The position numbers and the translations under genes are program-made. 50,930 nucleotides of DNA from Macrostomum lignano (lineage: Eukaryota), in assembly GCA_002269645.1 (NCBI GenBank), contig NIVC01002512.1:1-50930 (forward strand). The letters are read 5' to 3'. Of the stretch, positions 6,132 through 42,390 are shown piece by piece. Position 1 is the first letter of the stretch, and every line of letters begins with the position of its first letter. The notes beneath the pieces were generated by a model. It ran no database searches and was not told the DNA's origin. It saw only the letters and a list, made by a program, of their open reading frames with translations.

Positions 6132-6137
6132 GTTTGA

Positions 6138-7941: not shown

Positions 7942-7961
7942 GTGAGCCGGCTGGGACTCCC

Positions 7962-8064: not shown

Positions 8065-8081
8065 GTTATTCTCTCTTCCAG

Positions 8082-8424: not shown

Positions 8425-8468
8425 GTGAGCTTAATATTGCTTTTAATCCGCCGGTTCTTGACTGAAAT

Positions 8469-11108: not shown

Positions 11109-11159
11109 ACTATGGCAGGTCTGAGTTATCCCAATCCGATACTACAAATCCCATTTAAG

Positions 11160-23473: not shown

Positions 23474-23483
23474 AGAACAAAAA

Positions 23484-23870
23484 ATGACACATGTTACTAA
23501 TATGCAAAATCTGAATGAATTACAGGTAGGAGACCCAGTTGAATACCGAGGTGAGGGGCTTTTTGATGTGGTAGGAACAGCAGCAAATTTTGTTAAAGAC
23601 AATATGGGTCTTATAGGGCAAGCAGGCTCCGCAGCAGGTTCCATAACAAATGCTGTAAAAGGAGGAATTGAAGCAGCGAAAGCAGCAGAAGAACTAAAGA
23701 AATTGAGAGAATTTAACGACACCCTCTCACAAATAAATGCAATAAAAGATTTAAAGCTGGCACAAGCCGCACAACCAACAGAAACCCCCGCGAAAACCAC
23801 GCCAATAAGTAATAAAGATATTCAGGATTTTAATAAAATGTTAACCACAATTAAAGGTGGAAAGGATTAA
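23484..23870 (+). CDS. Polinton protein of unknown function (Gly/Ala-rich amphipathic; possible virion core protein)
   Basis: 128-aa ORF with AAAAAATG start, directly after the TIR. Confidence 0.7.
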   Translation: MTHVTNMQNLNELQVGDPVEYRGEGLFDVVGTAANFVKDNMGLIGQAGSAAGSITNAVKGGIEAAKAAEELKKLREFNDTLSQINAIKDLKLAQAAQPTETPAKTTPISNKDIQDFNKMLTTIKGGKD

Positions 23871-23891
23871 AAAAATTTTAACAATATAAAA

Positions 23892-24866: not shown

Positions 24867-24950
24867 GCTCCTGGGGGGTGGGTCAGGACGCTAAAAACAT
24901 AAAATTAAAAAACCAATAATTCAAATACTATATAAATTATATTCCATAAA

Positions 24951-27900
24951 ATGGAAGCAATTTTAGCTCAAATCGATAATCCCGAAATTAGAGCACAATT
25001 AATAGCTCAATTGGAATTAGAAAGAGCTAATATAGAAGCTAGAGTTAGGGCAGAAAATGAGATACGTTTAGAAAGACAATTAAATGATATTGATAACCCC
25101 CAACCACAAAGACAAAATGGAGCTGAAGTAATAGATATAGATATTGATATAAATACAAATTATAAAGAATATTTTAAACAAATGAAAGATAAATTAAAGA
25201 CCATATTAAACAATTATACTATAAGGCCAAATAACAAACTACAGCCAATTAAGTATAAAATAGAAGTTGAAACAGAATTTAAAAAACCAAATATACTTAA
25301 TGCAAATTCAGAAATTGAAGTAATAAATAACTTTTCACAAGAATCTTATAAGACACTTCTATCAATGAGAAATTACAACAATCAATTTAATCAAGTAGAA
25401 GCTGAGTTTGATGAATGGATAGATAAGATGACAGAAAACGGATCCGGGTTTATATTTGTATCCTGTAATTCAGCAATAGTAAAGATTGCACCCATAGAAA
25501 TTCTTAAAGGACGATCACACATGAAGCTATACTTTAAATCACCAATGATTATAAATCCAGACAATAGAGATAATAAATGTTTATTATGGTGTTTATTAAT
25601 TCATAAATATCACAATCAAGTAGAATCACACATTAATAAAATATATAATTATAGACAATATGAGGATGAAATAATAATGAAAAACATATCATACCCAGTA
25701 GCAATAGATGATATATATAAGATTGAAAAAATGAATGGTTTAAATATTAATGTGTTTACAATTGAAGAACCAGAAGATCTAGAAGTAATTCTAGCTGATA
25801 AAGAATGGTATAAGAAAAACTGTTATTTAGTAAAACCAGCAACTGATATAACTGCACCAGATCAAATCGATCTTTTGTACATGCAGCGCGAAAATGAAAC
25901 ACATTATATATACATAAAAGATATTAGTTCTTTTTTAAGAGAAAATAGAAATAGATATCCACTATGTAGAAATTGTTTCACATTTAAAAAGGATGAAACA
26001 GCTCTTAAAAATCATCAACGATTTTGTTTAGATCATAAATTTACTAATGTTATAATGCCAGATTATGAAGATGCAACCCTAAAGTTCCAACAACATTATA
26101 TGGCAATTAAAAAACCAATAGTAATATATGCTGATTTTGAAGCAACAAATGTTCCCTTAAAAGAATCACAGACGGTATCTGATGGAGATCATGCAAAGCA
26201 TGCGACCCTACGGGACGAATGCACAAAAAAATTAGCACAACAGTTTCCGAATAGTTATTGTATATATGTACACTCCGTAGCTGATCATATATTTAAATCA
26301 AGGATGATTACTTACCACGGCGAGGACGCAGCAAAACACATGGCAGAATCATTAGTAAATGCATTTGAAGTTATACAAAATCAATATGATAAATTATCAA
26401 AAAATATTATTATGACAGATAAGGATAGAGACAATTATAAAAATGCAACAAATTGTTTTATGTGCAAAAGGTATTTAAGTAAGAATAATAAAATACGAGA
26501 ACATTGTCATCTAACGGGAAAATATCGTGGGGCAGCATGTAGATCATGTAACGCAAAAGAAGGAAAAGGCTGTAAGGAAATACCAGTATTTTTTCATAAT
26601 GGTTCCGGATATGATTTTCATTTCTTAGTTCGAGAATTGCTACATTTAGGAAAGGATGAATATGAAGTAAATATATTACCTAAAACATCAGAAAATTACA
26701 TATCAATAACATATGGTAAGAAATACTCCCATCTAGTTTTTCTAGATTCCTTGAGATTCTTATCAACATCTTTAGCAAATGTTGTTTCATCATTAGTTCC
26801 AAAACCATGGGATTTAGAAATAGTAAAGAAAAACTTTCCAATCTTATTGGATCGCTTTAAAAAGGAAAAACTATCCGAGGAAGAACTAATGCTATTAACT
26901 CGTAAGGGCATCTACCCATATGAATATGTAACATCTAAAGAGGTATTTTCTCATACCGAATTACCCCCAATTGATAAGTTTTATTCCACATTATCACAAT
27001 CAAATATAAGTGAATCGGATTATGAACACGCTCAAAAAGTATGGAAATACTTTAATTGTAAAACATTTAAAGATTATCATAATCTATATCTTAAAGCAGA
27101 TGTTCTCCTATTAGCTGATGCATTTGAAAACTTTAGGAATCATACATATGAGAATTTCAAAATTGATCCCGCATATTGTTTTAGTGCACCGGGATTAACA
27201 TGGGCTTGCGGTTTGAAACATACAGATGTTGAGATTGATTTACTAACTGATCATGATATGTTGTTAATGATTGAGAGAGGAATTCGCGGTGGATTCTCGG
27301 GTGTACTAGGAGATAGATATACTAAAGTAAATAATAAATATCTACCAAATTATAATAAAAAAGAAAAATCATCATATGTATTATATCTAGATGCAAACAA
27401 TTTATACGGCGGTTGTATGAAACAAAAATTACCAATAGCTGATTTCCAATGGGAAGACGATCCCGATTATTACAAAAACATTCCCGAAGGAAGGGGCTGT
27501 ATCGTAGAAGTGGATTTGCAATATACTCGGGAAGCAAAAGCAAAAACATATAAATATCCTTTAGCTCCAGAGCATTGTTCAGTTACTGAAGATGATTTAT
27601 CACAAACACAAAAAGATTATCTTAAAGCAGATAATGCAAAACATCTAGCAACAAAAAAGTTAATACTAAATTTACATGATAAGAAAAACTATGTAGTGCA
27701 TTATAAGCTTCTACAATTTTATGAAAAGCAGGGATTAAATGTGTCTAAAGTACATCGAACAATATCGTTTATTGAGGAAGATTGGTTAGCTAAATATATT
27801 GATTTTAATTCAAATCAGAGACAGATGTCAAAAACAAATTTTGAGAAAGATTATTGGAAATTAATGAATAATGCTTTTTATGGAAAAACGGTTGAAAATA

Positions 27901-28919
27901 TTAGAGATAGAACCCAATTCCATTTAGAAAAGGATATTGATAAAGCAAAGAAATATTTCTCAAAACCTAACTTTAAAGATTTTATAAAATTTGATGATAA
28001 CTTTATGGGTATTCATATGAGAAATAAAACAACAAAATTTCTTAAACCAATATTTATTGGAATGGTTGTTTTAGATTTTGCAAAGCTAGTAATGTATGAA
28101 TATTATTATGATGTTATAAATAAAACATGGCCAGATAACTATCCAATATATGCAGACACCGACAGTTTGGTATTTAAGGTTGAAACAGATGACCGGGCAA
28201 AGCCCGCGAACCAAAGGTTCGATGTCTATAAAGATATGGAAAAAATTAAGGATACATTGGATACCTCCGACTATCCGGATAACCATCCTTTAAAATCAGA
28301 TCAAAATAAAAAAGTTGTACTTAAAATGAAAGATGAATTAAATAGCAAAATCATAACCGAGTTTATAGCAATAAGATCAAAATGCTATGCATTTAAAGTT
28401 TTAGGACAGGAGGGAGAGGTAAAAAAAATAAAAGGGGTATCAAGGGCAGCAGTTAAAAAGATAACATTTGATGATTATAAAAACGTACTTTTAGATTATC
28501 TTAATACAATCGAAAATTATCATGCTCCACAATATCAATTAAATTCAGATAAGCATAAGATGTTTGTCATCGAGACAGATAAAAAAACATTAAGTCCATT
28601 TGATGATAAAAGATATTTAGATGATAAAATAAAAACATATCCATATGGTTTAAAAGAAGAGATAATAAACATGATAAAAGATAAAAAACAAAAAGAAGAT
28701 ATTATAAGCAATTATAAAGAATACAAAGAAGCAATAAATAATTATTATTACGATTGTGATTGCGAATCCGAATGTGAATGTGAATATAATAAATTTCTAG
28801 AATATAAAAAAGATATAGATAATTATTATGCAACATTTCCAAAAGAACTTAAAAAATTAAATAAGGAAAAAGTCTTGAATAACTGGAAGAGATTAACAGA
28901 AAAATTACTTATCGGATAA
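24951..28919 (+). CDS. polB: Protein-primed family B DNA polymerase (pPolB), 1322 aa
   Basis: IYADFE, FFHNGSGYDFHF, RKGIYPYEY, YLDANNLYG, KLMNNAFYGK and YADTDS motifs; endonuclease VII-like Zn insert CFMC..REHCHLTGKYRGAAC; uninterrupted frame. Confidence 0.97.
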   Translation: MEAILAQIDNPEIRAQLIAQLELERANIEARVRAENEIRLERQLNDIDNPQPQRQNGAEVIDIDIDINTNYKEYFKQMKDKLKTILNNYTIRPNNKLQPIKYKIEVETEFKKPNILNANSEIEVINNFSQESYKTLLSMRNYNNQFNQVEAEFDEWIDKMTENGSGFIFVSCNSAIVKIAPIEILKGRSHMKLYFKSPMIINPDNRDNKCLLWCLLIHKYHNQVESHINKIYNYRQYEDEIIMKNISYPVAIDDIYKIEKMNGLNINVFTIEEPEDLEVILADKEWYKKNCYLVKPATDITAPDQIDLLYMQRENETHYIYIKDISSFLRENRNRYPLCRNCFTFKKDETALKNHQRFCLDHKFTNVIMPDYEDATLKFQQHYMAIKKPIVIYADFEATNVPLKESQTVSDGDHAKHATLRDECTKKLAQQFPNSYCIYVHSVADHIFKSRMITYHGEDAAKHMAESLVNAFEVIQNQYDKLSKNIIMTDKDRDNYKNATNCFMCKRYLSKNNKIREHCHLTGKYRGAACRSCNAKEGKGCKEIPVFFHNGSGYDFHFLVRELLHLGKDEYEVNILPKTSENYISITYGKKYSHLVFLDSLRFLSTSLANVVSSLVPKPWDLEIVKKNFPILLDRFKKEKLSEEELMLLTRKGIYPYEYVTSKEVFSHTELPPIDKFYSTLSQSNISESDYEHAQKVWKYFNCKTFKDYHNLYLKADVLLLADAFENFRNHTYENFKIDPAYCFSAPGLTWACGLKHTDVEIDLLTDHDMLLMIERGIRGGFSGVLGDRYTKVNNKYLPNYNKKEKSSYVLYLDANNLYGGCMKQKLPIADFQWEDDPDYYKNIPEGRGCIVEVDLQYTREAKAKTYKYPLAPEHCSVTEDDLSQTQKDYLKADNAKHLATKKLILNLHDKKNYVVHYKLLQFYEKQGLNVSKVHRTISFIEEDWLAKYIDFNSNQRQMSKTNFEKDYWKLMNNAFYGKTVENIRDRTQFHLEKDIDKAKKYFSKPNFKDFIKFDDNFMGIHMRNKTTKFLKPIFIGMVVLDFAKLVMYEYYYDVINKTWPDNYPIYADTDSLVFKVETDDRAKPANQRFDVYKDMEKIKDTLDTSDYPDNHPLKSDQNKKVVLKMKDELNSKIITEFIAIRSKCYAFKVLGQEGEVKKIKGVSRAAVKKITFDDYKNVLLDYLNTIENYHAPQYQLNSDKHKMFVIETDKKTLSPFDDKRYLDDKIKTYPYGLKEEIINMIKDKKQKEDIISNYKEYKEAINNYYYDCDCESECECEYNKFLEYKKDIDNYYATFPKELKKLNKEKVLNNWKRLTEKLLIG

Positions 28920-29300
28920 AATCCGCGACCCTTCGGGGCGGACAAAAACCAAAGCATGTAATTGTTTGAGCATATCATTAACTTCAATTTCATATATTAT
29001 TGAGCACCAATTATCCTCACAGTCGGCAGGGTAACTTAAACATTCCTTTATTTTTTTCCTAAGTTTTTTTATTTTTCTAACAAGACGATCAATTTCAATT
29101 TCAATTACTATTTCAGCATAATTAATTGCTTTTTGTATAAAACGTTTTCTTTTATCCAAGTCGTATCGGATAGGAAACATATCGTCCCCATAATCACTAT
29201 AAAACATATTATTTATTTTTTTATTAATATAATTAAGTTCACGCTCTTTAGTGATAAGGATTTTTATTGTCTCCATTTTCTTATAAAAAAATTTAGTCAT
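28905..29300 (-). CDS. Polinton hypothetical protein (131 aa)
   Basis: ORF with A-rich start in a tightly packed gene block. Confidence 0.55.
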   Translation of the reverse strand: MTKFFYKKMETIKILITKERELNYINKKINNMFYSDYGDDMFPIRYDLDKRKRFIQKAINYAEIVIEIEIDRLVRKIKKLRKKIKECLSYPADCEDNWCSIIYEIEVNDMLKQLHALVFVRPEGSRILSDK

Positions 29301-29625
29301 CTTCGTCAGCCTCCCAAACCGAAGCCAATTTTACAGTCCTATCACACTTTTTATTTTTTGGTTGTTTTAGTTTAAATTGCAACCCACCCTCCAGACTGTA
29401 TTTCATAACAAACGCTTTTGGTTTATTAATAACTAAAACAGGAAAATTTTTAACATCATCTCCGCTTAGACATAAAATTTTATGCCCATCTAATTGTAAA
29501 AATATCGATTGAAGTCCAATAAATTTAACCTGTCTCAAACATATAATATTATATTCTTTATTCTCCAACATATTGGGGGTGACATAATTAATCACATTAG
29601 AATCGGTTTTGAACCAGCTTTCCAT
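29293..29625 (-). CDS. Polinton hypothetical protein (110 aa)
   Basis: AAAATG start; abuts neighbouring ORFs. Confidence 0.6.
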   Translation of the reverse strand: MESWFKTDSNVINYVTPNMLENKEYNIICLRQVKFIGLQSIFLQLDGHKILCLSGDDVKNFPVLVINKPKAFVMKYSLEGGLQFKLKQPKNKKCDRTVKLASVWEADEDD

Positions 29626-29651
29626 TTTTAATCTAAAAAAATAACAAAAAA

Positions 29652-30146
29652 ATGAAAGACATTTACGAATGTAAAAAATGTAACGTGACTATGCATAGAG
29701 CTCAAACAGCAAGCGGAGATATATATCATATGTGCTATTCATGTTCTAAAATATATCAATTTGAAAAAACAAAAAAGATTGAAAACTCATATTACTATTT
29801 TAAAAACACAATTTTAAGAAATCTTACAAGAGACATTTCTAATCCAATTTTAATTCCCGGAAATAATGTTTATTTATATAACAACTTTTTCCATTTAAAT
29901 AAAGGAGTGGGATTAAGTTCGAAAGACTCCGAAAGGATTTTAATTTTAGTTGGATATTATTTTAATTTTCTTATTCGAGAGAATACAAAGTTTATAAGGA
30001 TAGGTAACATACCTAACGAAATGTTACTGAAAAAGTCGTTGGAATTTTTATGTATTGATAAAAAATTTAAACCTAGGATTACAAGAGAATTACCACTTTG
30101 GGAAGAATATATAACGTATGCGTTAGAAAAAACTAAACAACATTAA
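29652..30146 (+). CDS. Polinton hypothetical protein with N-terminal CxxC..CxxC zinc ribbon
   Basis: YECKKCN...MCYSCSK; AAAAAATG start. Confidence 0.6.
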   Translation: MKDIYECKKCNVTMHRAQTASGDIYHMCYSCSKIYQFEKTKKIENSYYYFKNTILRNLTRDISNPILIPGNNVYLYNNFFHLNKGVGLSSKDSERILILVGYYFNFLIRENTKFIRIGNIPNEMLLKKSLEFLCIDKKFKPRITRELPLWEEYITYALEKTKQH

Positions 30147-30789
30147 GTTCTACCGCACTACCTGACCGTGGGCTTTGTACCCCAGTAGCCAGAGTTTCGG
30201 GTTCGTAAATACCTAATGTTTCTATCGGAGGAGCTTTGGGTTTGTCCAAACGTAATTCCTTCAATTCCATATCGGTAAAAGTTTCAACATCTAAAATTCT
30301 ATTTCTATCTTTTAAATATTTTTCATATAATTCCACCGCCGTTGATAACTCATGAATTGTTATCTTTCCATCATCCAATATTTTTTGCACATATAAATAC
30401 AACTGATTTTTATATTGTTTTGCAATATCTCTTAATGATTTATATTTATCCTTTCGTTTTTTAAGATATAATTTAATTGCTAAAAGTATTGATAAGTTTC
30501 TGATCATTTCAAAACCTGATATTGAGCCAATTGAAATACCTAAAAATAATTGAGATAAATTAAGAGTTGGAATAGATTGTAAAATACCTAAAACGATTAC
30601 ACATAACATTGATAAACTTCCAAATCCAATATTGAAAAAATCCATATTTCTGATATGGTTTGAAACTCTTCTTACTTTTTTGGTATATAAATCATAATCA
30701 TAGTTAATACGATCAACATTACTTAACATGTGACCCTTGCGTTGGTTAAAATGGTCACGTTCCCTTTTATCTGCTTCAGATACCGACAT
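30133..30789 (-). CDS. Polinton membrane protein (two predicted TM helices)
   Basis: Hydrophobic hairpin IGFGSLSMLCVIVLGIL..LFLGISIGSISG followed by KILDDGKITIHEL. Resembles a recurrent Polinton accessory protein, from recall only. Confidence 0.65.
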   Translation of the reverse strand: MSVSEADKRERDHFNQRKGHMLSNVDRINYDYDLYTKKVRRVSNHIRNMDFFNIGFGSLSMLCVIVLGILQSIPTLNLSQLFLGISIGSISGFEMIRNLSILLAIKLYLKKRKDKYKSLRDIAKQYKNQLYLYVQKILDDGKITIHELSTAVELYEKYLKDRNRILDVETFTDMELKELRLDKPKAPPIETLGIYEPETLATGVQSPRSGSAVELNVV

Positions 30790-31105
30790 TTTCGTCTATT
30801 TTTAATAGCACCAAAATGAATTCCCCGCGCTCTTTGGGTATTTGCCCGGAGCTTAATAGGTATTGTATTGGAGTGATTCTTTCTTTTTTCTCCCATTTAA
30901 ATCCAATCTTCCAAAACTCTTGAAGTATAATATGATTTTTTAATAGTTTAATTAATTCTTGAAGCTTCTTGTTATCCTGAACATTTACAGTACTAAATAA
31001 AAATTTGGTATGAGATTTGAATGTTTTTATATTTGATTCTTGTTTAGGAATAGGAATAATAACGTTATTATTTTGTCGCATCGATGGAGTTCTACTAAAA
31101 GCCAT
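30776..31105 (-). CDS. Polinton hypothetical protein (109 aa)
   Basis: AAAATG start; overlaps the next ORF. Confidence 0.55.
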   Translation of the reverse strand: MAFSRTPSMRQNNNVIIPIPKQESNIKTFKSHTKFLFSTVNVQDNKKLQELIKLLKNHIILQEFWKIGFKWEKKERITPIQYLLSSGQIPKERGEFILVLLKIDENVGI

Positions 31106-31161
31106 TTTATATATAAATATTTAAGGTATCGAACCTTTGGTTCGCGACTTAGGCTTTAGCC

Positions 31162-33207
31162 TTAGGCGATTTCGGTTTGTGGCCGTTCCAAATATGCGGT
31201 CGCAGCAAAATCATATCCTGCTGATGTGCTACCACAAACGGCAGCGCCACGAATAAAATGTGCAGCATCTGCTCCTCCAGTTCGAGCACCAAAACCCATA
31301 AGAGTTCCCGTTTTATCTAAAGTTCCCCAAGTTCCACTATCATATGTAAAAAAGTTTTGCCCAATTAGCGTATATGTATTAGCTGAAACATTGTATGTGC
31401 TTATTTGATACCAAACTCTTTGATTTAAAATATTAATTTCAAAAAGATGCCAATCACCATTATCAATATTAGCATAGGTTATAGTTTGATCTGCGTCATT
31501 AAGAACATCATTACGAACTGTTGCACCGTCTGATTTTATATTGCTCCAAAGAACCCCAACTCTATCATGCCATTCACTCGCAAACACAATCAAGCCGGCG
31601 TTGGTTGTTAACCCGGATCCAAATTCACTTGTTGGTCGTTCGTGACAATATGCATAAAACCAAACCGCATCAGCACCACTTCCTGTGGCATTAGCAACTC
31701 GGAAATAGAAGGAGGCGGATATATTACGAAAATGGGTGAAATTAAATTGTAACGCTCCAGAGCGACCCGATGCTTCATCAGTAATTCTAGCTCCATTTTG
31801 ATAATCAATATATGTAGCATCACCAACAAAACTTCCAGTTGGAAAAATATCGCCGGCGGTGGTTGGGTTTTGATATCCAGTCCAATTGCAAATTACAGGC
31901 TCGTACAAAGCGGCATCGATTGCAGGTATTCCATCCAATTTTATTTTATCGTTAAAAGACATTCGGCCATCCGCCGTTTGTGTTACTCGCGTATCAACAT
32001 AACCTTTAGTAACAACAGAACTGTTATTGTTTATAGTAGAGATATTAGTAATTGTATTACCTCCCATATCAATTGATTGATCAACTACTCCCAAATTTAA
32101 ATCAAGAATTGTAAACGTCTGTCTATAAATCTGGAAGGTTGACAGACCTGGGTTGGTAGCGCCCGAGGTTGATGTAAGACAGAACAATCTGAAATATGAA
32201 TATGTTTTATCAAAATTTTGTGTGACATTAATTGTTTGAGTTGAGTTATTTATTACTACAGAACTATCCGCAGGTATTAATACGTCCCAACTTGTATTGT
32301 CGTTACTCCCCTCAAATCGCCATGATGCTGGGTGTTCGGTTGAAGGTGATGGCCTACCACGTAAATCAATTTTATAACACATTATTGCGGAAGGGCATTG
32401 GACTTTTATCCAATAATCGGTTTGAGTATTATTTGTTGCCCAATCTGTTGAATCATCACCATCAAACGCTTTCCAGCTTGCAAAATCGGTTGTATTAAAT
32501 GCAGTGCTTGCGGTTATTGCAAAACCATTTCCACTCCAATCTGACATGGTTGGTATGTGACCAGTTTCAACCGTTTGGAACCGATCTTGTTTTTGGGCTC
32601 CACCTCCAACTAAATTATCAACCTCCGTTTTGGTATAAGAATCAGCAACATTCCGTTTTAAATTTAAGGAATTATCAACTTCAGTTTTGGTATAAGAATC
32701 AGCAACATTTCGTTTTAAATTTAGGGAATTATCAACTTCAGTTTTGGTATAAGAATCAGTTATATCTCTTTTCAAATTTAGGGAATTATCAACCTCTGTT
32801 TTGGTATAGGAATCAGCAACATTCCGTTTCAAATTTAAGGAATTATCAACTTCGGTTTTGGTATAAGAATCGGCTGTATCTCTTTTTAAATTTAATGAAT
32901 TATCTATTTGAGTTCGAGAATAAGAATCAGTTATATCTCATTTTAAATTTAACCCATTGTCAACTTCGGTTTTGGTATAAGAATCGGCAGTATTGCGTTT
33001 TAAATTTAGGGAATTATCTATTTGAGTTTTGGTATAGGAATCTGCAACATTTCTTTTTAAATTTAGTTTAGTATCAACTTCACTTTTTTTATAACCTTCA
33101 TCTTCATTAATATATCGGTTGTCTCCGAATGTAACACTTATTCCACCAGAAGTACCACCACCAGTACTTGATGTTCCGTTCCATGAGGGTGTTCCAGAAA
33201 ATAACAT
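31162..33207 (-). CDS. Fibre/receptor-binding-like protein: 19-aa repeats, discoidin (F5/8C)-like domain, lectin-like beta domain; one in-frame TGA at 32938-32940
   Basis: ORFs 32938-33207 and 31162-32832 are in the same frame. About 8 copies of KRNVADSYTKTEVDNSLNL; also ASWKAFDGDDSTDWAT..YWIKVQ..WRFEGSNDNTSWDVL. Confidence 0.75.
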
Positions 33208-33217
33208 TTTTTACTGT

Positions 33218-33658
33218 CTATTTTATAGAGTCTAAAATCATCTTAAATACTTCGGGAGTTACACGAGCTTCATTCGAAAGTCGATATAAAAAATACAACG
33301 CCGCTTGCCCGCAATAACTTTTATCAAAGGTTTGAAACTGTTCGTGATAATCTCCACATAAACGATTTTTAGTATGATTAAATTTATCTTTTATTTCCTG
33401 TAACGGAGGAAGCGCGTATGAATCAAAAAAATAAACAAGTTTAGGTTTGGAATAAACTGCCGACCAATGAACCCCGTTTTCTTTTGTTGTTTCTATATTG
33501 ACAATGTAAGATCCATATTGTGGTAAGTCTTTGATCTCATCCCGCATAACACATCTGAATGGTTTTATTTTTAACTGCCGCGCCCAATTTGTTAATTCGA
33601 TATTGCTTGTTGTGTCTGTTCCATATCTTTGTTTAAAATCATCCCACGTCATGGTCAT
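33218..33658 (-). CDS. Adenain-like cysteine protease (virion maturation protease)
   Basis: NGVHWSAV, YFFDSY and QTFDKSYCGQAALYFL give an H-D-(Q)-C catalytic set. Confidence 0.9.
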   Translation of the reverse strand: MTMTWDDFKQRYGTDTTSNIELTNWARQLKIKPFRCVMRDEIKDLPQYGSYIVNIETTKENGVHWSAVYSKPKLVYFFDSYALPPLQEIKDKFNHTKNRLCGDYHEQFQTFDKSYCGQAALYFLYRLSNEARVTPEVFKMILDSIK

Positions 33659-33659
33659 T

Positions 33660-33833
33660 TTATGTTCCTGAAAAACTCTTGGTTTTGGTTAGTTTCGTAG
33701 GTTTGGATTTTAACAGTTCCTTTCTGATTTTTTCTGCCTGTAATTGTTTCAATTTTGTTAATTCGATTTCATAATTATCTTTTGCATTTTGAACTTTATC
33801 TGATTGTTTTTTTAAAGCATTGTTGTTACCCAT
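33660..33833 (-). CDS. Small basic coiled-coil protein (57 aa) with MG N-terminus
   Basis: AAAAATG GGT AAC..., reads MGNNNALKKQSDKVQNAKDNYEIELTKLKQLQAEKIRKELLKSKPTKLTKTKSFSGT*. Fills the penton-protease gap almost exactly; below the ORF-track cutoff. Confidence 0.6.
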   Translation of the reverse strand: MGNNNALKKQSDKVQNAKDNYEIELTKLKQLQAEKIRKELLKSKPTKLTKTKSFSGT

Positions 33834-33843
33834 TTTTACAGTA

Positions 33844-34629
33844 CTAAACCTGTTTTATACGTAAAATCACTGTTATTGACTGCCCACCAAAACTTATTAA
33901 TCTATCGCTTTCATCTACAATCCTAATATAAATTGATTGAACACTATATTGATTTAATGGGTAATATATTGGGGTTTGAGGTGAAACAATCATTTTCTCT
34001 CCAATTGGAACAGCAAGAAATGGGATTGAATAAATAATTCCACGTTGAACCAAAACTCCGTTATCGTCTGTTATATAACCGCCGTTTGATTTGTCGGTTG
34101 TTATATTAATTGTGTTGACTCCACCCTCAATATTTCCAACTGTATCGCCGGTGCTTGATGTGGTAACTATTCGGGAATTAAATCCAAGTATGGTTCTGAG
34201 TGAATTTGCAATTGTGAAATCAACCTGATATCCGGATTCGAGTGATAGTGTGAATCTGCCAGACGGTAAATCAACACCTATAACAATTGCTCCTGCTACC
34301 CAATCTCCATTAGCTGTTAATTCTCCTTCTATATAAGCATTCAAATCAGTATAGCTATACGCACCCGGGCTAACACTAAATGTTGTCCAATTGGCTCCGG
34401 AATCTTTAGAATATCTAAATTGATTATTTGTTGCATTAATTAATTGTGGCATGTTAAAAACCGAAAATAATATCAAACCTATTTGATAACTTAGGCTTTG
34501 ATCAAGTTGTAACGGATCGCGCAATTGAATCCGTTGCTCGCTGGTTGTCATTATAAACTGTAATGTTGTACTAAATTTTGAATTAGTTCGATCTACCAAT
34601 TGTTTTGTAGTATTTAAATTTGTAGTCAT
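33844..34629 (-). CDS. Minor capsid protein (penton)
   Basis: PLQLD..YQIGLILFSVFN..INATNNQFRY..VSPGAYSYTDLN pattern typical of Polinton pentons. True start is probably the AAAAATG at 34629, not 34728. Confidence 0.8.
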   Translation of the reverse strand: MTTNLNTTKQLVDRTNSKFSTTLQFIMTTSEQRIQLRDPLQLDQSLSYQIGLILFSVFNMPQLINATNNQFRYSKDSGANWTTFSVSPGAYSYTDLNAYIEGELTANGDWVAGAIVIGVDLPSGRFTLSLESGYQVDFTIANSLRTILGFNSRIVTTSSTGDTVGNIEGGVNTINITTDKSNGGYITDDNGVLVQRGIIYSIPFLAVPIGEKMIVSPQTPIYYPLNQYSVQSIYIRIVDESDRLISFGGQSITVILRIKQV

Positions 34630-34708
34630 TTTTATAGTGGGGAAATCGTGCCATAGGCACGCGGACTCCGTCCGATCGCCCCGTAGGGTCGCGTTCCGAA
34701 GGAACGAA

Positions 34709-35473
34709 CTATGTCTCTTCTTCCTCATTATCTTCTTTTATCAGATCTCTTAAGATTCGATTTTTCCTTTCTAACCTAGGGTTGATATATATATGTTTGT
34801 ATTGGCTATCTTCCCAAATTTTTTTACACAAGCTTTTAAATGGTTTTGTATCCAACCCGGGATTAAATCTAGCGTGTATATTTTGTAGATCATAATTATC
34901 TAAATCAAACATTACACAACAACTTGCATTCTTTTTTATAATCGATTCTAATTCTCTAAAGGACTGTGTTAGATAAAAAGCTCCAATTCCATCTCCTCTA
35001 CCACTAACAAAAATTTCCTTTTGCAATTCTTGATCGCCGTCATTAATACAATCATCAAAAATAATTAGTGTTTTATCATTTTTTGGAATTTGATCATAGC
35101 CTAATCGGGTTGATACTCTAACAGTTGGGGCTCGTTCGGTGATGTTTTCTGGATCTTCTGCCATTTTTTTACATAAATCCTCAATGTCATCGAGTGTAAA
35201 TCGCGGTTCGTCATCATCCTCATATTGCTCATATGCTCTTAACATTCTAAACAAGACATCTTTTTTTAATTTGTTTTTTAATCCATGTTTAAGAAATTCA
35301 TAATATTTTATTCTAGGTTTGTTAGTATAAATTATTAAATTATTATAGTCTATCATTCCATCGGTTGTTAACAGGTCATAAACAAAGTGTGTTTTTCCTT
35401 TACCAGACCCACCAATTACTAAACAAAGAAAAGGATCATTTGGAAATATAATATTGTGTTTTGCTTTTACCAT
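34709..35473 (-). CDS. DNA packaging ATPase (A32/FtsK-HerA superfamily)
   Basis: Walker A GGSGKGKT, Walker B LIIFDD and motif SGRG..IGAFYLTQSF. Start probably AAAAATG at 35473. Confidence 0.92.
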   Translation of the reverse strand: MVKAKHNIIFPNDPFLCLVIGGSGKGKTHFVYDLLTTDGMIDYNNLIIYTNKPRIKYYEFLKHGLKNKLKKDVLFRMLRAYEQYEDDDEPRFTLDDIEDLCKKMAEDPENITERAPTVRVSTRLGYDQIPKNDKTLIIFDDCINDGDQELQKEIFVSGRGDGIGAFYLTQSFRELESIIKKNASCCVMFDLDNYDLQNIHARFNPGLDTKPFKSLCKKIWEDSQYKHIYINPRLERKNRILRDLIKEDNEEEET

Positions 35474-35489
35474 TTTTAAAGATAAAATT

Positions 35490-36962
35490 TTACAGCGGCG
35501 CGTCCCGAACAATCGTGCCATCAGCTTTAGCAATTGATAAATATTCCTCTAGAAACAATACGTGTGCGTCTATTGCCTGATTACCGGTTTTATTAATCTC
35601 TAACATATAATTAAGTCCAATATTGGCTACGTTTTCTTTCTGTGCCGTTAGATCATAAACAACCACTGGATGGATGTTTAGAAACTCTGTGGGAGTGTAC
35701 TGAGGGACGGCATACGCTTCATTTTTGGCATAATCTTGATAATATTTTATAAAATCATTAACATCATTATTTGCAATATTTAGATTAAGAGGATCTTTAA
35801 CCGGATAGTATTGATCATCAACCTGCAGGCGGATATTCTGAACATTAAACTCGTTAATAGCCGCAACCTCATTATCTGATGCTGTGGCTGCTTGTGCTGC
35901 TATGGCGTCCGATTGAAGCCAATATAAATCCCCATTTGCTCTTTTACTCCTTCTATTTGTTATCTTAAACCAAACAAAAATATATCTCACCCGACGTTTT
36001 GATGTCAGTATTTGCCACTGGAATGAATCCTGGTTATTATTAATGGTTCGCATAAAATGTCGACGATTCAAATAAAATATTTCCTGATCATGCGTTAACT
36101 GATTATCGACATGTTTTAAAAGTGGAGCTGTTACCTCAATAGTTGGCACGACTAATTGTATTGATGCTATGCGAACTGCTATATCGGTTGAAATAGAGGT
36201 TCCATAAAGTATCCTAGGCTGATATCCACCAGATATTTGCAACTGTACCCCAAATTTTAATCCTTTCCATACCCGATTTGGTGAGAAGAATCCAAATAGT
36301 GGAAAGATTGAAAAGTCTTGCTCATATGCTGTTGCTGTGGTTAAAACTGCAACTGGGAATTTATTCTGACGATCTATAAAACCTGTATTAATCTCTTTTG
36401 TATTAGTCATGGTGGTTACAACTGGAACTATATTGGTATTAAGGTAAGCAATTAGAGCTGCAGTATCTGCACCAGCTGCGTTTTGTACATTAGGGAAAAC
36501 TACTGCTTGACCATTGCCCTTATCAGGCATCCACCCAACATTATCACCAACTTGTTTTGATAAATAAGTATAATTTAAATGTTTCAAAACTCCATTAATC
36601 TCTGCGGGGTTTGATGATGTCTCAACCTCGGCACCATTAACAGTTAGTTGAGCTTGGGAAAAACATTTATAAAACCAATCATTTTCTATTATTATTCCAG
36701 ATCGATCTGCGATATCTCCGGCTGCAAGAGCAGTTCCATCATTTCTAGTATACAACCATCTAACGCGGAAAAATGCATTTTTCATATCCAATATGGTGTT
36801 GGTTGCGCCGATGTCAAAAGCTACCGTTCCACTAGTAAAGTTATTTGTATTATCACTTGTTGGTAGGGTATAATTTAAATCTCTTGCTCTGACCTCATTA
36901 ATATACTGGCGGTGCTTTTTGAAATGAAATTTAACACTCCATATAGTTTTTGTTTCAGCCAT
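35490..36962 (-). CDS. Major capsid protein (double jelly-roll), 490 aa
   Basis: Size, beta-rich composition and position upstream of ATPase-penton-protease. Inferred from synteny, not from a profile hit. Confidence 0.8.
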   Translation of the reverse strand: MAETKTIWSVKFHFKKHRQYINEVRARDLNYTLPTSDNTNNFTSGTVAFDIGATNTILDMKNAFFRVRWLYTRNDGTALAAGDIADRSGIIIENDWFYKCFSQAQLTVNGAEVETSSNPAEINGVLKHLNYTYLSKQVGDNVGWMPDKGNGQAVVFPNVQNAAGADTAALIAYLNTNIVPVVTTMTNTKEINTGFIDRQNKFPVAVLTTATAYEQDFSIFPLFGFFSPNRVWKGLKFGVQLQISGGYQPRILYGTSISTDIAVRIASIQLVVPTIEVTAPLLKHVDNQLTHDQEIFYLNRRHFMRTINNNQDSFQWQILTSKRRVRYIFVWFKITNRRSKRANGDLYWLQSDAIAAQAATASDNEVAAINEFNVQNIRLQVDDQYYPVKDPLNLNIANNDVNDFIKYYQDYAKNEAYAVPQYTPTEFLNIHPVVVYDLTAQKENVANIGLNYMLEINKTGNQAIDAHVLFLEEYLSIAKADGTIVRDAPL

Positions 36963-36996
36963 TTTTTTATGTTAAAAAAGTTTTTTATGTTAAAAA

Positions 36997-37671
36997 ATGA
37001 GTCAATTTATGGACGTTGATGGAGAGTTAGCGATTTATAAAGAGAAGCAAAGATATTCTGATTTTGTTAGAAATTTGCAAAAAAGAAAGTTAGGAATACA
37101 ATTAGCTGGCGAAAGATTTGCTGCTCCTTTTGTTAATCCTATTACTGGGAAAATTAGTGAACTAGAAAAAACAGATAAAGACCTTCTGGAAAAAATTGCT
37201 ACGAATACTGAGCCAAAAGAGGATGAAATTTTGGATGAGCCGCTTGCTTATAGTGTTGCTCAAGCGCTAATGAGACTTGCAGAGATTAGGGGTGCAGAAA
37301 GGGGTGAAGAAGTTGAACAATTTCCAAGAGTACCAGATAGTATTGCTGTTAAAGATTTAGGTGGTGGTAATTATCAAATTGGTGGAGTTAATAAACATCG
37401 AAATGAACTATATAGCGAATTGGGTGGAGCATTTAATATTATTACGAACCCTAGGCTAAGATTTAACCCTGATTTATATACTAGGGATGAATTAGTAAGT
37501 GCTAAAAAATTTTACGATGACTTAGGAGGAGCTGTTAAAAATACCAGCTTGTATAAAAGGATTGTTGATTCTATAAATAACAAGCCAGCTGTTGGTGAAG
37601 GATTTAAAACTCCTAGAAAACTTGTTTTAGCTGCTGCGAAAGCTGCTGGGCATACAGGAATCGCCCCGTAG
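36997..37671 (+). CDS. Polinton hypothetical protein (224 aa)
   Basis: AAAAAATG start, divergent from MCP. Its stop codon TAG lies inside a hairpin repeat. Confidence 0.7.
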   Translation: MSQFMDVDGELAIYKEKQRYSDFVRNLQKRKLGIQLAGERFAAPFVNPITGKISELEKTDKDLLEKIATNTEPKEDEILDEPLAYSVAQALMRLAEIRGAERGEEVEQFPRVPDSIAVKDLGGGNYQIGGVNKHRNELYSELGGAFNIITNPRLRFNPDLYTRDELVSAKKFYDDLGGAVKNTSLYKRIVDSINNKPAVGEGFKTPRKLVLAAAKAAGHTGIAP

Positions 37672-37723
37672 GGTCGCGAACCAAAGGTTCGATTAATTAA
37701 TTGTTAAATTTATTTTTTATAAA

Positions 37724-38390
37724 ATGGATGAAACAAAAATTTGTAGTCGATGTAAAGAAGAAAAATTTTTGTTTGAGTTTAGATATAGAAAAACCCAGAA
37801 TCGATATGAAGGTAATTGCAAAGAATGTGAGAAATTTTATCAAAAGAATATTCGCTATCCTCGATATTATGCTGAAAATAAAGAAAAAATTATAGAGAAA
37901 GTTAAAATATACACACAAAACAATAAAGAAAAAGTTAATCAATATAGAAAAAACAAGATATGGTGAAGATGAAAATTTCAAACTTATTATAAACATGCGA
38001 TCTAGAATAAATAAACTATTAAAATTAACTAATGGCCAAAAAGATAATCATACTATTTATTATCTTGGTTGCACAATTGAATTCTTTAAAGATTGGTTAA
38101 ATTTCACTAAAGATTATTATGTGCCAAAAGATTATATTGGTGTTTTGCATGTTGATCATTTTATTCCTGCTTCATCTTTTGATTATCGCAATGAAGAACA
38201 AATTAAAAAGTCGGAACATTGGACAAATAAAAGATACTTAGCTGCTATTGATAATATAACCAAATCTGTTAAACAACCAACCATTGAAGAATTTGCAAAA
38301 CAATTAGTGTTAACTTGTATTTTTAAGGCTATAAAAAATGAGCAATCATGCGACGCATGCGAACCGAAGGTTCGACCAATTAGTGTTTGA
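37724..38390 (+). CDS. Free-standing HNH-type (homing) endonuclease, +1 frameshift in the A-run near 37945-37952
   Basis: N-part CSRCKEEK..GNCKECEK plus basic repeats. Skipping one A continues as KTRYGEDENFKLIINMRSRI..YLGCTIEFFKDWL..LHVDHFIPASSFD..HWTNKRYL..DNITK, like NCLDV/phage HNH nucleases. Confidence 0.75.
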
Positions 38391-38496
38391 AGGAGGATTG
38401 TTAGATGTTCAAAAAGGATTAACAAGCTTACCACCAATCTTTACTACTGGTAAATATACAGGGGAACTACACCTACCATCAATGAACTTCACAGGT
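38338..38496 (+). CDS. PLA2-integrase fusion gene, exon 1 (53 aa)
   Basis: AAAAAATG start; reads MSNHATHANRRFDQLVFEGGLLDVQKGLTSLPPIFTTGKYTGELHLPSMNFTG, followed immediately by in-frame TAA (the first intron bases). Not in the ORF track. Confidence 0.85.
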
Positions 38497-38799
38497 TAAC
38501 CCGTGGCCTGAGTGGTAGAAGCAAACCTACTGCTAGTCACTATTTGTGGCGACATCTTCAAATTGCGTGAAACCCGTCATACAGCTTCAAGTACCACTTC
38601 AATTGAGAAATCCTTTGAAGGAACAGAGGTAACTCCTCTTCCCAACGGTAACAAGCTTGAAGACAAGGTGGCAATGCGCAGCCAAGCTCCTAAGTATTTT
38701 AAATATAAGGAGAAGGTTCAGAGAGCAGACGGAGATGGGCGGTAATCATCGCCGCTTAAGGTGTGCTCCAGCCTCTTTCGAAAGATTGAGGGTAAACTG
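38497..38799 (+). ncRNA. Group I self-splicing intron, IC1-like, 303 nt, no internal ORF
   Basis: P1: exon CAGGU pairs with GCCUG (38506-10), with U.G at the splice site. P3: CAUCUUC (38553-59) / GGAGAUG (38731-37). P4: UGCGUG / UGCGCA. P5abc with A-rich bulge and GAAA loop. P6. P7: GAGAGCA (38721-27) / UGCUCC (38764-69) with bulged A. P8: GGCGGU / AUCGCC. P9; P9.0 AG/CU; terminal G38799. Splicing restores FTG|PGT. Confidence 0.93.
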
Positions 38800-39948
38800 C
38801 CGGGGACTCGCTTAGATTTGAGATTAAATCCTGACAATACTCCAAAATCTGATTCAATTCCAATAAATGGTATTGACTGGTTAGCATATTATCATGACTT
38901 AGCATACAGAGATGCTGACAAGAACCCGCCCGAGGAAGCACTAAGATTAAAACATGAAGCCGATCAAAAAATGATTCAAGGATTAGATAACTTGCAGGGA
39001 TTATCGGTAGGGCAAAGATTAACTAGGTGGATGGTTAAAAAGATCTTGCAGTCTAAAGTTAAATTTGGTTTGGGAATTAATTACAACCAACATGGAAATA
39101 ATTGTGTCGAGTGTTTGTTGTTAAGTGGTAGTGGGCTAAGTTCTGATAAGGCAAAGGTGCTTCATAAAGAATATAGAAAACCTAAATTTTATAGAAAAAT
39201 CATGAACTTCAAAAAGAATGAAATTTGGTATGCTGATTTAATGTCGCTGCCGAAAGATCTGGGATATAAATATATCTTAACCATATTAGATGGTTTTACT
39301 CGATACGCGTGGGCTGTTCCTTTAAAATCCAAAAAGGGAGAGGAGGTTGCTGCTGCTTTTAGAAGTCTTGATGAAAAAAGCGAAAGGTTGTGTGTTGATG
39401 AAGGAAAAGAATTTTACAATCCTCATATGTATAAATTGTATCATTTTGAAAAAGGAAAAGAAAGGATGAAGGACGCGAATGGGGAGTATATTAATAAAAT
39501 TTATTCTATTTATGGAGAAAGCAAAAACGCATTAATAGAAAGATTTAATCGAACTTTAGGTAAGAAATTATGGTTTCAGTTTAGTCTTAATGGTAACCAA
39601 AAGTGGGTAAAAATATTACCAGACGTAGTGAAAGATTATAACAATTCATATCATTCAGCTATAAAGATGACTCCTCAACAAGCTTATAACAAACCTGAAA
39701 ATGTTAAGGTTACTTTTGGAGAATTTGAAAAAAAGAAAACTAAAGGTTTTAAAGTTGGTGATTCTGTTTATATCTATAAATGGAAAGATAAGTTTGAAAA
39801 GGGAAGAAAAGGATATTGGAAAATAAGTGAGAAATTTACCATCAGTAGGGTTTTAAATACCAATCCTACAACCTATATAATTGCTGATAAGGATGGTGAA
39901 GAAATATTGGGTTCTTTTTATGAGAACCAGATAATGTCTGCGAACTAA
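38800..39948 (+). CDS. PLA2-integrase fusion gene, exon 2: rest of the parvovirus-type PLA2 domain and retroviral-like DDE integrase
   Basis: PGTRLDLRL..PINGIDWLAYYHDLAY..HEADQ (PLA2 HD motif), then WYADLM, ILDGFTRYAWAVPLK, VDEGKEFYN, IERFNRTL and the C-terminal FKVGDSV..GSFYENQI typical of Polinton integrases. Confidence 0.92.
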   Translation, partial: PGTRLDLRLNPDNTPKSDSIPINGIDWLAYYHDLAYRDADKNPPEEALRLKHEADQKMIQGLDNLQGLSVGQRLTRWMVKKILQSKVKFGLGINYNQHGNNCVECLLLSGSGLSSDKAKVLHKEYRKPKFYRKIMNFKKNEIWYADLMSLPKDLGYKYILTILDGFTRYAWAVPLKSKKGEEVAAAFRSLDEKSERLCVDEGKEFYNPHMYKLYHFEKGKERMKDANGEYINKIYSIYGESKNALIERFNRTLGKKLWFQFSLNGNQKWVKILPDVVKDYNNSYHSAIKMTPQQAYNKPENVKVTFGEFEKKKTKGFKVGDSVYIYKWKDKFEKGRKGYWKISEKFTISRVLNTNPTTYIIADKDGEEILGSFYENQIMSAN

Positions 39949-39958
39949 GTTCAAACAG

Positions 39959-40183
39959 TTACTTAAGACAACATGGTAGTAAATTTTTTATAACAAACAA
40001 AAACAATATTATTACTATTATTGTTACTAATATTATTATTGACATTTGTTCAACTGTTATCAAACTTAAATTTTCATTAAGTTCATTAATCGGAACATTT
40101 CCGATGTAGGAGTAATTTACCTTCATTTTTTTATATATATTTTTCATAATAAAAGTCGTTTCTGTTATAGAATAATAATTCAT
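39959..40183 (-). CDS. Small single-pass membrane protein (74 aa)
   Basis: IIILVTIIVIILFLFVI hydrophobic run; AAAAAATG start. Confidence 0.55.
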   Translation of the reverse strand: MNYYSITETTFIMKNIYKKMKVNYSYIGNVPINELNENLSLITVEQMSIIILVTIIVIILFLFVIKNLLPCCLK

Positions 40184-40198
40184 TTTTTAAATATTTTT

Positions 40199-40405
40199 TC
40201 ACAGTTTAAACATTGTGCTTTGCTCCCCCTTATCCCAAATATACTCTAATTCTCCAATTTCAAGCGGATATATCTTTATATTTGGAAATATATATACTTC
40301 GTCTAGTATTTCATCCTTTATTAATTTTTTTATTGAATCAAGTGCATTAAATATTGTTTGAGTTGATTCAACTATTGAAAAGTGGGGTCTGTTAAATAAT
40401 TCCAT
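40199..40405 (-). CDS. Small acidic protein, paralogue of 40409-40723
   Basis: Shares I.DEVY....K.YPLE..E with its neighbour. Confidence 0.6.
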   Translation of the reverse strand: MELFNRPHFSIVESTQTIFNALDSIKKLIKDEILDEVYIFPNIKIYPLEIGELEYIWDKGEQSTMFKL

Positions 40406-40408
40406 TTT

Positions 40409-40723
40409 TTACATAAAAATTTCACTTTCATTCTCAGAATCACTGGTTTCATATGAACTATTTGTTGATTCGGAATCTGTTGATCTAACCTCCCAATCAT
40501 CCGAATTTAAATAATCTCCAAGTTGAAATATTAACTCTCCCTCTTGTTCTAAATCATACATCTCATCCAACTCTAATGGATAAAGTTTTAGGTCATGCTT
40601 GTCGTCATATTTTAAATAAACTTCATCAATTATTCCATTCAAAATATGTTGTTTTATTATCTCTGCATTTTTAGCAACAGTCTCAAAAGTATCACTAACA
40701 GAAAAGGTGTAAACTCGGCTCAT
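40409..40723 (-). CDS. Small acidic protein starting at the right TIR edge
   Basis: The ATG overlaps the TIR boundary; IIDEVYLKYDDKHDLKLYPLELDE; Ser/Glu tail. Confidence 0.6.
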   Translation of the reverse strand: MSRVYTFSVSDTFETVAKNAEIIKQHILNGIIDEVYLKYDDKHDLKLYPLELDEMYDLEQEGELIFQLGDYLNSDDWEVRSTDSESTNSSYETSDSENESEIFM

Positions 40724-41047
40724 TTTTAGTAACAGAAAAAGACCCTTCGCGCCTGCGGCGCGGGCGACGGGTTATAGAGTAGTAGTGGAGAAAAAGACGC
40801 TTCTAGATCAGACCTTATTTTAATGGCCGTTTGTAAGGTCTTAAGAGGGGGGACGCGAGGGGAGTGTTGGGAAGTGTTGGGAATGATTTTTATTGATTTT
40901 TGTTATTAGGGGGTTTTTAGATGTGTTTTTGTTTTGGAGGGTGTTTAGATGTGTTTTTTTATTTCCCCCTCGTGTCCCCCCTCTAGACCCTTAAAACGGC
41001 TGTTAAAAAAGTGCTCTGGGTCTAGAAGCGTCTTTTTCCCTACTACT
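40722..41047 (-). repeat. Polinton right TIR (326 bp)
   Basis: Inverted copy of 23138-23473. Confidence 0.95.
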
Positions 41048-42390
41048 ATGGGGTCAGGCAATTGGATTGGATGGGGTCAGGCAATTGGGTTGGATGGGGT
41101 CAGGCAATTGGATTGAATGTGGTCAGGCAATTGGATTGGATGGGGTCAGGCAATTGGATTGAATGTGGTCAGGCAATTGGATTGGATGGGGTCAGGCAAA
41201 TGGATTGGATGGGGCAGGCAATTGGGTTGGATGGGGTCAAGCAATTGGGTTGGATGGGGTCAGGCAATTGGGTTGGATGGGGTCAAGCAATTGGGTTGGA
41301 TGGGGTCAGGCAATTGGGTTGGATGGGGTCAGGCAATTGGATTGGATGTGGTCAGGCAATTGGATTGAATGTGGTCAGGCAATTGGGTTGGATGGGGTCA
41401 GGCAATTTGGCTGGATGGGGTCAGGCAATTTGGCTGGATGGGGTCAGGCAATTGGGTTGGATGGGGTCAAGCAATTGGATTGGATGGGGTCAGGCAATTG
41501 GGTTGGATGGGGTCAGGCAATTGGATTGAATGTGGTCAGGCAATTGGATTAGATGGGGTCAGGCAATTGGGTAGGATGGGGTCAGGCAATTTGGCTGGAT
41601 GGGGTCAGGCAATTTGGCTGGATGGGGTCAGGCAATTTGGCTGGATGGGGTCAGGCAATTGGATTGGATGGGGTCAGGTTGGATGGGGTCAGGCAATTTG
41701 GCTGGATGGGGTCAGGCAATTTGGCTCGATGGGGTCAGGCAATTGGATTGGATGGGGTCAGGCAATTGGATTGGATGGGGTCAGGCAATTGGATTGAATG
41801 TTGTCAGGCAATTGGATTGGATGGGGTCAGGCAATTGGGTTGGATGGGGTCAGGCAATTTGGCTGGATGGGGTCAGGCAATTTGGCTGGATGGGGTCAGG
41901 CAATTGGGTTGGATGGGGTCAAGCAATTGGATTGGATGGGGTCAGGCAATTGGGTTGGATGGGGTCAGGCAATTGGATTGAATGTGGTCAGGCAATTGGA
42001 TTAGATGGGGTCAGGCAATTGGGTTGGATGGGGTCAGGCAATTTGGCTGAATGGGGTCAGGCAATTTGGCTGGATGGGGTCAGGCAATTTGGCTGGATGG
42101 GGTCAGGCAATTGGATTGGATGGGGTCAGGTTGGATGGGGTCAGGCAATTTGGCTGGATGGGGTCAGGCAATTTGGCTCGATGGGGTCAGGCAATTGGAT
42201 TGGATGGGGTCAGGCAATTGGATTGGATGGGGTCAGGCAATTGGATTGAATGTGGTCAGGCAATTGGATTGGATGGGGTCAAGCAATTGGGTTGGATGGG
42301 GTCAGGCAATTGGATTGAATGTGGTCAGGCAATTGGATTGAATGTGGTCAGGCAATTGGGTTGGATGGGGTCAGGCAATAGGATTGAATG
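41048..42390. repeat. 23-bp G-rich minisatellite, right of the Polinton
   Basis: Same unit as 21808-23137. Confidence 0.95.

Follow-up and report, generated by a model that had tools for sequence, protein, structure and literature searches.

The group I intron in a 50,930-base stretch of Macrostomum lignano DNA (hereafter the window, meaning the whole stretch analysed) is probably a mobile one, resident in a PLA2-integrase gene that belongs to animal Polintons. It is an RNA of a known kind in a host compartment and gene for which no earlier report was found, and the mobile system that accompanies it is unusually complete.

Identification, boundaries and fold of the intron

That positions 38497 to 38799 hold a genuine group I intron is, judging from the sequence, virtually certain. 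The initial annotation had proposed an intron here and named the Rfam family RF00028 as a check, and the covariance search returned a match at window positions 38488-38790 on the forward strand (63.7 bits against a gathering score of 50, E 6.4e-14), the sole RNA family match across all 50,930 bases. Standard pairs made up every one of the 17 helices that were traced by coordinate in the window (P1, P2, P2.1, P3, P4, P5, P5a, P5b, P5c, P6, P6a, P6b, P7, P8, P9, P9.0 and a possible P10), with the P3-P7 pseudoknotted core, the P4-P6 domain, P8 and P9 all present. The folding energy of the whole intron was ordinary (z -1.37), hence the proof lies in the covariance model and in covariation, not in stability. 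The intron and its parts are as follows.

38497..38799, forward strand: group I intron, 303 nt, no ORF, terminal G38799, boundaries from empty alleles
38492..38510, forward strand: P1, with U38496.G38506 at the 5' splice site and the internal guide at 38506-38510
38500-38505 with 38800-38804, forward strand: possible P10
38512..38550, forward strand: P2 (38512-38533) and P2.1 (38536-38550)
38553..38737, forward strand: P3 (38553-59/38731-37), enclosing P4, P5, P5abc, P6, P6a and P6b
38563-69/38675-81, forward strand: P4, inside P3
38585-38662, forward strand: P5abc, with an A-rich bulge and a GAGA loop
38721..38769, forward strand: P7 (38721, 38723-27/38764-69; the span includes P8), with the G-binding pair G38723-C38768 and bulged A38722
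38763, forward strand: G of J8/7, at the position of Tetrahymena A306
38770..38798, forward strand: P9.0 and a short P9 with a GAAA loop, no P9.1/P9.2

The U.G pair that the initial annotation placed at the 5' splice site was confirmed, P1 being retained in both Polinton families described below (A, that of the window, and B) and the pair being present in all 75 parsed loci. The P10-like pairing that it had also described can form in the window copy but was not conserved across copies. Introns of subgroup IC1 are marked by P2/P2.1, a P5abc with an A-rich bulge and a P9.1/P9.2 extension; the window intron possesses the first two of these features and lacks the third, with 8 nt following P9.

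The boundaries were provided by an intron-less homologue from another assembly (P0043), of which residues 1-32 matched the end of exon 1 at 72% identity and residue 33 onward continued, without a gap, from residue 1 of exon 2. As natural empty alleles join exon 1 directly to exon 2, the intron boundaries are exact.

The interrupted PLA2-integrase gene

The intron was inserted at one exact site within the code for the GPG calcium loop of the PLA2 domain, dividing the gene into two exons.

38338..38496, forward strand: exon 1, 53 codons from ATG 38338, the last being the Gly codon that precedes the Pro of the GPG loop
38800..39948, forward strand: exon 2, 382 open codons, encoding the remainder of a parvovirus-type PLA2 domain fused to a retroviral-type integrase (rve)

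Two earlier readings of this gene were sustained, namely that unspliced exon 1 runs at once into a stop (a UAA at the first intron codon) and that excision would rebuild the GPG loop. Exon 2 alone scored 18.7 bits against PF08398, under the cut-off, in contrast to the gapless, intron-less P0043, which scored 33 bits across the insertion site, over the cut-off. Fusion of PLA2 to integrase was the natural form in six of seven relatives. The claim that the intron gates the integrase, on the other hand, was not upheld, as exon 2 has an in-frame ATG at 38971, before the integrase, from which a 325-codon frame covers that domain in full, and splicing therefore need not gate it, despite several out-of-frame ATGs upstream. 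Integrase alone may come from ATG 38971, and it is doubtful that integrase production depends on splicing.

The Polinton and its chromosomal setting

The interrupted gene belongs to a Polinton recognized by its terminal inverted repeats and gene set, on a contig that also encodes host proteins.

23138..41047, no strand assigned: Polinton element, 17.9 kb
23138..23473, forward strand: left terminal inverted repeat, beginning AGTAGT
40722..41047, reverse strand: right terminal inverted repeat
23132..23137, forward strand: left copy of the 6-bp target-site duplication, in register with a 23-bp host minisatellite
41048..41053, forward strand: right copy of the 6-bp target-site duplication
24951..28919, forward strand: presumed DNA polymerase B of 1322 aa, containing an endonuclease VII-like domain (PF02945)
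34709..35521, reverse strand: A32-type packaging ATPase (PF04665)
35490..36962, reverse strand: major capsid protein candidate (Atlas 0.97-0.98 to viral clusters, some of them double-jelly-roll; low recognition value)
5783..12093, forward strand: host nuclear-receptor gene in several exons, with zinc fingers (PF00105) and a ligand-binding domain (PF00104)
18540..19001, forward strand: host NR2C2-associated protein gene, the named matches being all animal among the 120 listed of 688

The element holds both a retroviral-type integrase and an A32 ATPase. We take the 1322-aa product to be polymerase B from motifs recognized in its translation, profile searches of it having returned no polymerase family match, and a maturation protease is presumed from a motif. 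No Pfam or NCBIfam family names the polymerase, the protease, the capsid candidate or the HNH-like gene described below. The endonuclease VII-like domain lies inside the polymerase (window 26440-26595, residues 497-548); an HNH domain found in one class of Polinton polymerases is a topic of a nematode preprint, in its available part.

Several other features of the window were recorded. A 33-nt inverted repeat (85%; 31116-31148 and 37673-37705) brackets the minus-strand block of virion genes, and a related motif occurs at 38360-38378. Within the tail-like virion gene region is a 57-bp tandem repeat of 8.5 copies (32613-33094), adjoined by a gene with an F5/8 type C domain (31162-32547). An intact-looking DDE_3 transposon, with a 354-aa ORF and 330-nt inverted repeats, occupies 15518-17801. 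In the window element (23138) and sister copies L292-L303, the terminal repeats differed between copies yet agreed within a copy at positions 7-20, as is expected if both ends are homogenised during replication.

Placement of this Polinton in animal nuclear DNA, as the initial annotation had it, is held with very high confidence. Nuclear receptors are an animal marker, and the element is flanked by an exact 6-bp duplication. A Polinton of a protist, symbiont or free virus could instead have been misassembled into the animal contig through the minisatellite: the same 23-bp repeat, which is prone to misjoining, lies on both flanks, GC falls from about 50% to 30%, and Polinton-like viruses of protists carry group I introns. 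However, the duplication is in register with the repeat, and five of six other copies examined had their own 6-bp duplications, each in a different, unique flank, three of the six sitting on contigs of 227-454 kb. Over 100 copies were found across the assembly, and the stretch was present in sequencing runs of 8 studies under one organism label (7 without a possible source study). These observations, together with the host genes, make contamination unlikely, and we consider misassembly very improbable.

Sister copies, empty alleles and a second intron type

A search of the assembly (764 Mb) yielded 173 candidates, of which 40 were scored matches at ≥95%, and a search with the PLA2 exon gave 150 scored out of 514 candidates. 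For classification, 109 family-A loci on contigs up to C4057 were used, with 11 family-B loci, one partial locus and later contigs left out. The window-type intron was carried by 85 of these loci, a second intron type by 21, and three were empty, such that 106 of the 109 held an intron in a sample that favours close kin of the window. Pattern searches were less discriminating: a P7 pattern gave 126 matches against 59 for its control (100 of the 126 with positions, which set the C4057 limit above) and was used with positions only, a degenerate empty-site pattern was too noisy for counting alleles (240 matches against 116), and a 14-base pattern for the second intron retrieved mostly unrelated matches.

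The genome-wide RF00028 search led to a second Polinton family, family B, to which all 28 scored loci belonged. It has about 58% protein identity to the family of the window, and its intron ends directly before the same exon 2. Intron-less sister alleles, for which the initial annotation had suggested a survey, were found in the M. lignano genome at L307, L308 and L431 (window's family) and at L309 (second family), in addition to P0043 elsewhere. Both L307 and L309 have C in place of U before the insertion point, which makes the U.G pair impossible there, and they are possibly intron-resistant alleles.

The second intron type (24 loci, 325 nt; for instance L304-L306, L310 and L436, on contigs C904, C103, C87, C486 and C249) starts at the same position as the window intron. 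It scored 42-43 bits against RF00028, under the cut-off, and was nearest to a metagenome locus, L212 (71% over 251 nt). Its P2, P2.1 and P5abc are shared with the window's family whilst its core differs, a combination that suggests core swapping, and its sole in-frame 3' end leads to an altered loop with one extra residue. In L436, about 800 nt of unrelated DNA lie within P8.

Signs of exchange were also seen among the commoner introns. P2 came in two versions, each paired throughout, that have been shuffled from copy to copy (17 and 21 of 38), and the 333-nt introns of L034, L035, L048 and L049 bear an additional P5abc hairpin of 30 nt, a feature otherwise characteristic of family B and apparently the product of recombination between families. 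Recombination would, in general, shuffle intron parts among copies.

The terminal G described in the initial annotation is present in the window, but at the position of window 38799, 20 of the 38 distinct family-A copies (L004-L049) end in A, with the G-binding pair unchanged. The remaining copies end CTG, CAG, CGG or ATG, and terminal A is associated with particular exon-2 start codons. Exon 2 was open in 18 of the 20 terminal-A copies, the PLA2 codons of which had 11 synonymous-only columns against 3 amino-acid-changing columns. A precedent exists in hexacoral mitochondria, where ND5-717, an intron in an animal protein gene, yields ligated exons without a terminal G; according to the available passages, that intron is mitochondrial, fixed and obligatory, whereas the Polinton intron is nuclear, multicopy and polymorphic for G/A (PMC6545197).

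Selection on the fold and on the interrupted reading frame

An alignment was made of 38 distinct cores (28 of family A, nine of family B, and L212), with two loci unparsed. Paired states filled 2688 of 2764 cells, and 21 of 73 pairs had double changes, two of them doubtful as the P9 rows look misaligned for L212; as the cores are related sequences from three lineages, these counts do not represent independent events. P7 took three versions at the same site in the three lineages (GAGCA/UGCUC, GACUU/AAGUC and GACUA/UAGUC), all of them paired, and the G-binding pair was G-C in 36 of 38 cores. Within family A, P7 and P4 were invariant in all 28 cores, and paired sites varied less than unpaired sites (7/146 vs 11/103).

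Tetrahymena has a 306.266-309 base triple, as described in the accessible text of PMC10020454. The third base of this triple followed the 266-309 pair, G accompanying G-C, as in the window, and A accompanying C-G; among 84 viral cores, the former combination was found in two and the latter in 69, with 12 unparsed and one other. The covaried P7 (GAGCA/UGCUC) of the initial annotation is one of the three paired versions at this site, and the variant, together with its J8/7 base, is also present in those two viral cores.

Constraint on the protein was estimated from 10-20 intact haplotypes of 49 loci. Codons 1-57 of exon 2, which precede ATG 38971 and are useful only after splicing, had dN/dS values of 0.04 and 0.09, compared with 0.25 for exon 1 and 0.10 for the integrase, in a sample where 30 of about 50 loci had been chosen as best protein matches, which lowers dN. 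Of the 49 loci, 47 shared one catalytic His-Asp segment. Part of this PLA2 constraint signal could stem from selection acting on the few empty alleles and passed on by recombination with them.

Probable splicing of the intron

From the covariation and the purifying selection, we infer that the intron is quite likely to be spliced in vivo at a useful level. Following transcription in the animal nucleus, the intron would, with a similarly good chance, remove itself by two guanosine-dependent transesterifications, perhaps with the help of host RNA chaperones, and so restore a full-length PLA2-integrase.

No spliced joint was listed in the contigs of three runs guessed to be RNA (X19, X11 and X4), and in each of the three a contig reads across the 3' splice site in unspliced form (X19 record 16, X11 record 6, X4 record 28). 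Since the kind of run was guessed (none of the runs listed with the stretch is on record as RNA), contigs drop rare forms, and the runs may contain DNA, the missing joint is weak evidence against splicing. Contigs of a DNA run likewise showed no joint, though empty alleles exist in the assembly; these make up about 3% of copies and have differing flanks, and the DNA run is consequently not a clean sensitivity control.

The unspliced contigs do agree with the notion that the intron, whilst real, splices barely or no longer in this animal, its conserved fold having been inherited from an earlier phase. Intron copies would then make integrase from the in-frame ATG 38971, with PLA2 supplied by those few alleles that are empty, and the many terminal-A copies fit the same picture. 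It is hard to reconcile, however, with the strong constraint on PLA2 codons that depend on splicing, terminal-A copies included, with the invariance of P7 and P4 in family A and the lower variability of paired sites, or with the ligated exons of the coral intron that lacks a terminal G. We regard loss of splicing as unlikely, and a working ribozyme as the preferred reading.

Removal by the host spliceosome through a cryptic GT-AG pair, with the ribozyme fold as a passenger, was considered because two in-frame GT-AG pairs exist, one of them with its donor at 38495 and its acceptor at 38815. Both pairs, however, delete codons of the GPG loop (18 and 63 nt lost) that are conserved in all empty alleles, and the option was rejected on that account. 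The intron start is moreover not GT, its end in the window copy is not AG, and the catalytic core covaries; spliceosomal removal is accordingly rated as highly improbable.

Linked nucleases and proposed homing

Family-B introns measured 836-895 nt in 26 parsed loci, a length explained by an ORF held in the P2.1 loop. This ORF matched PF09553 (Eco47II) over the cut-off, and the model of its product (pLDDT 96, 107 sequences) had a PD-(D/E)xK fold with conserved acidic and lysine residues, the best fold match being EcoO109I (TM 0.66-0.70), among type II restriction enzymes. In L212, the same gene is interrupted at the same site by an intron with a nuclease ORF in the P2.1 loop, as in family B. 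Ten of 17 close nuclease relatives read on into a translation resembling the intron core, which indicates that the nuclease-bearing mobile form exists in further lineages.

The intron of family A has no ORF, and a free-standing nuclease gene instead occupies a slot upstream of exon 1.

37724..38390, forward strand: HNH-like free-standing nuclease gene, two broken ORFs in the window, overlapping the start of exon 1

We take this gene to be HNH-like from its motifs; it had an Atlas lead of 0.88 and no Pfam match. Among the 38 distinct family-A copies, the slot held an HNH-like gene in 32 and a free-standing Eco47II-like gene in six, the latter being 65-69% identical to the intron-borne nuclease. 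The slot ORF was unbroken in many sister copies, and unbroken ORFs mostly end 106 bases ahead of the intron. The HNH-like alleles in the slot (window 37724-38390, L002-L050) have about 64-82% protein identity to that of the window.

The arrangement in family A resembles collaborative homing in phages, in which an ORF-less intron is accompanied by a separate, adjacent nuclease gene, and the model of which predicts that the intron can take up the nuclease gene (PMC3984707). In the available passages of that paper collaborative homing is shown in phages alone, whereas the M. lignano genome, that of an animal, contains a single nuclease family in both states. Homing by a linked, predicted nuclease is moderately likely, and on balance the intron would spread in this manner between Polinton copies, with empty alleles cut by the Eco47II-like nuclease, which is encoded within the intron in family B and, for collaborative homing, in the neighbouring slot in family A. 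A still active animal-nuclear system, in which mRNA splicing occurs even with a terminal A, nucleases drive homing and a second intron competes for the site, has somewhat less than an even chance of being correct. The idea in the initial annotation of a ribozyme riding a Polinton was right as to integration, but it missed the mobile intron-nuclease system, with its empty alleles, nuclease-bearing form and second type.

Origin and relation to known systems

Apart from the relatives described above, the intron came closest to introns of viral contigs, with about 70% identity over less than 200 nt (up to 192 nt); many of these contigs are of giant-virus type. Bodo saltans virus is reportedly a giant virus with group I introns. 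The giant-virus introns (IMG/VR loci L080-L159) share core words and, in two of 84, the same P7/J8-7 variant with the window, and differ in belonging to free viruses of protists. In one such contig (L101, 56-347 and 3001-3110), a giant-virus-type capsid gene has one group I intron; it is followed by a second, partial core, whose P7 variant is that of the window, and by an HNH-like ORF on the opposite strand. Relatives of the Eco47II-like nuclease at about 33% were found in giant-virus-type contigs, with no RF00028 match near the distant nuclease relatives in 15 loci scanned. A scan of viral contigs with the PLA2 exon gave one intron-less relative, and a scan with P0008 gave none. The intron may well have entered animals inside a Polinton, from an intron/nuclease pool of aquatic DNA viruses, an origin that we favour to a moderate degree.

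Group I introns have been reported in integrated Polinton-like viruses of Rhodomonas lacustris, Paulinella and Desmodesmus (PMC12220804, 2025). These are likewise RF00028 introns (309-376 nt) within protein genes of nuclear-integrated elements, but their hosts are protists, and the gene they interrupt is short, unannotated and situated upstream of that for the capsid, in contrast to the animal host, PLA2-integrase gene and exact site described here, and the available passages of that paper give no empty alleles, intron-borne nuclease or splicing data. Nuclear rDNA introns of the IC1/IE type share the P1-P9 core, P2/P2.1, the A-rich-bulge P5abc and nuclease genes in peripheral loops, the differences being that the window intron lies in an animal protein-coding gene and is without P9.1/P9.2 (PMC3679873, as far as available). 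With adintoviruses and other animal Polintons, the element shares a parvovirus-type PLA2 gene, an integrase and, presumably, polymerase B and a capsid module; the adintovirus PLA2 is fused to a pX-like domain (PLA2X), unlike the PLA2-integrase fusion found here, and the accessible text mentions no group I intron, its single occurrence of 'intron' being unrelated (PMC8502044).

Searches of the open literature, which leaves aside closed journals and repeat databases, turned up no group I intron described from an animal Polinton or from animal nuclear DNA. The word 'intron' is absent from PMC11131425, and in the available portions of other sources (nematode preprint, PMC11296320, 10.64898/2026.10.13.758929) such introns are mentioned in passing alone. 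The range of group I introns given in the initial annotation had missed the integrated Polinton-like viruses of protists (PMC12220804).

Significance

A 2013 review assigned the group I introns of nuclei solely to the rRNA genes of eukaryotic microorganisms (PMC3679873, in the passages available), and the rule that they are confined to rRNA genes and absent from animal nuclei has already been dented by the protist examples (PMC12220804, in part). In practical terms, gene finders would truncate the PLA2-integrase gene of these Polintons, and the Eco47II-like nucleases may represent a homing enzyme of a new type. As one genome holds empty sites, ORF-less and nuclease-bearing introns, free-standing nucleases, a rival intron and both G and A ends, homing and nuclease capture can be studied together. 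The presence of more than 100 copies in an animal genome also makes it testable whether such ribozymes can work in animal mRNA, and why they are rare.
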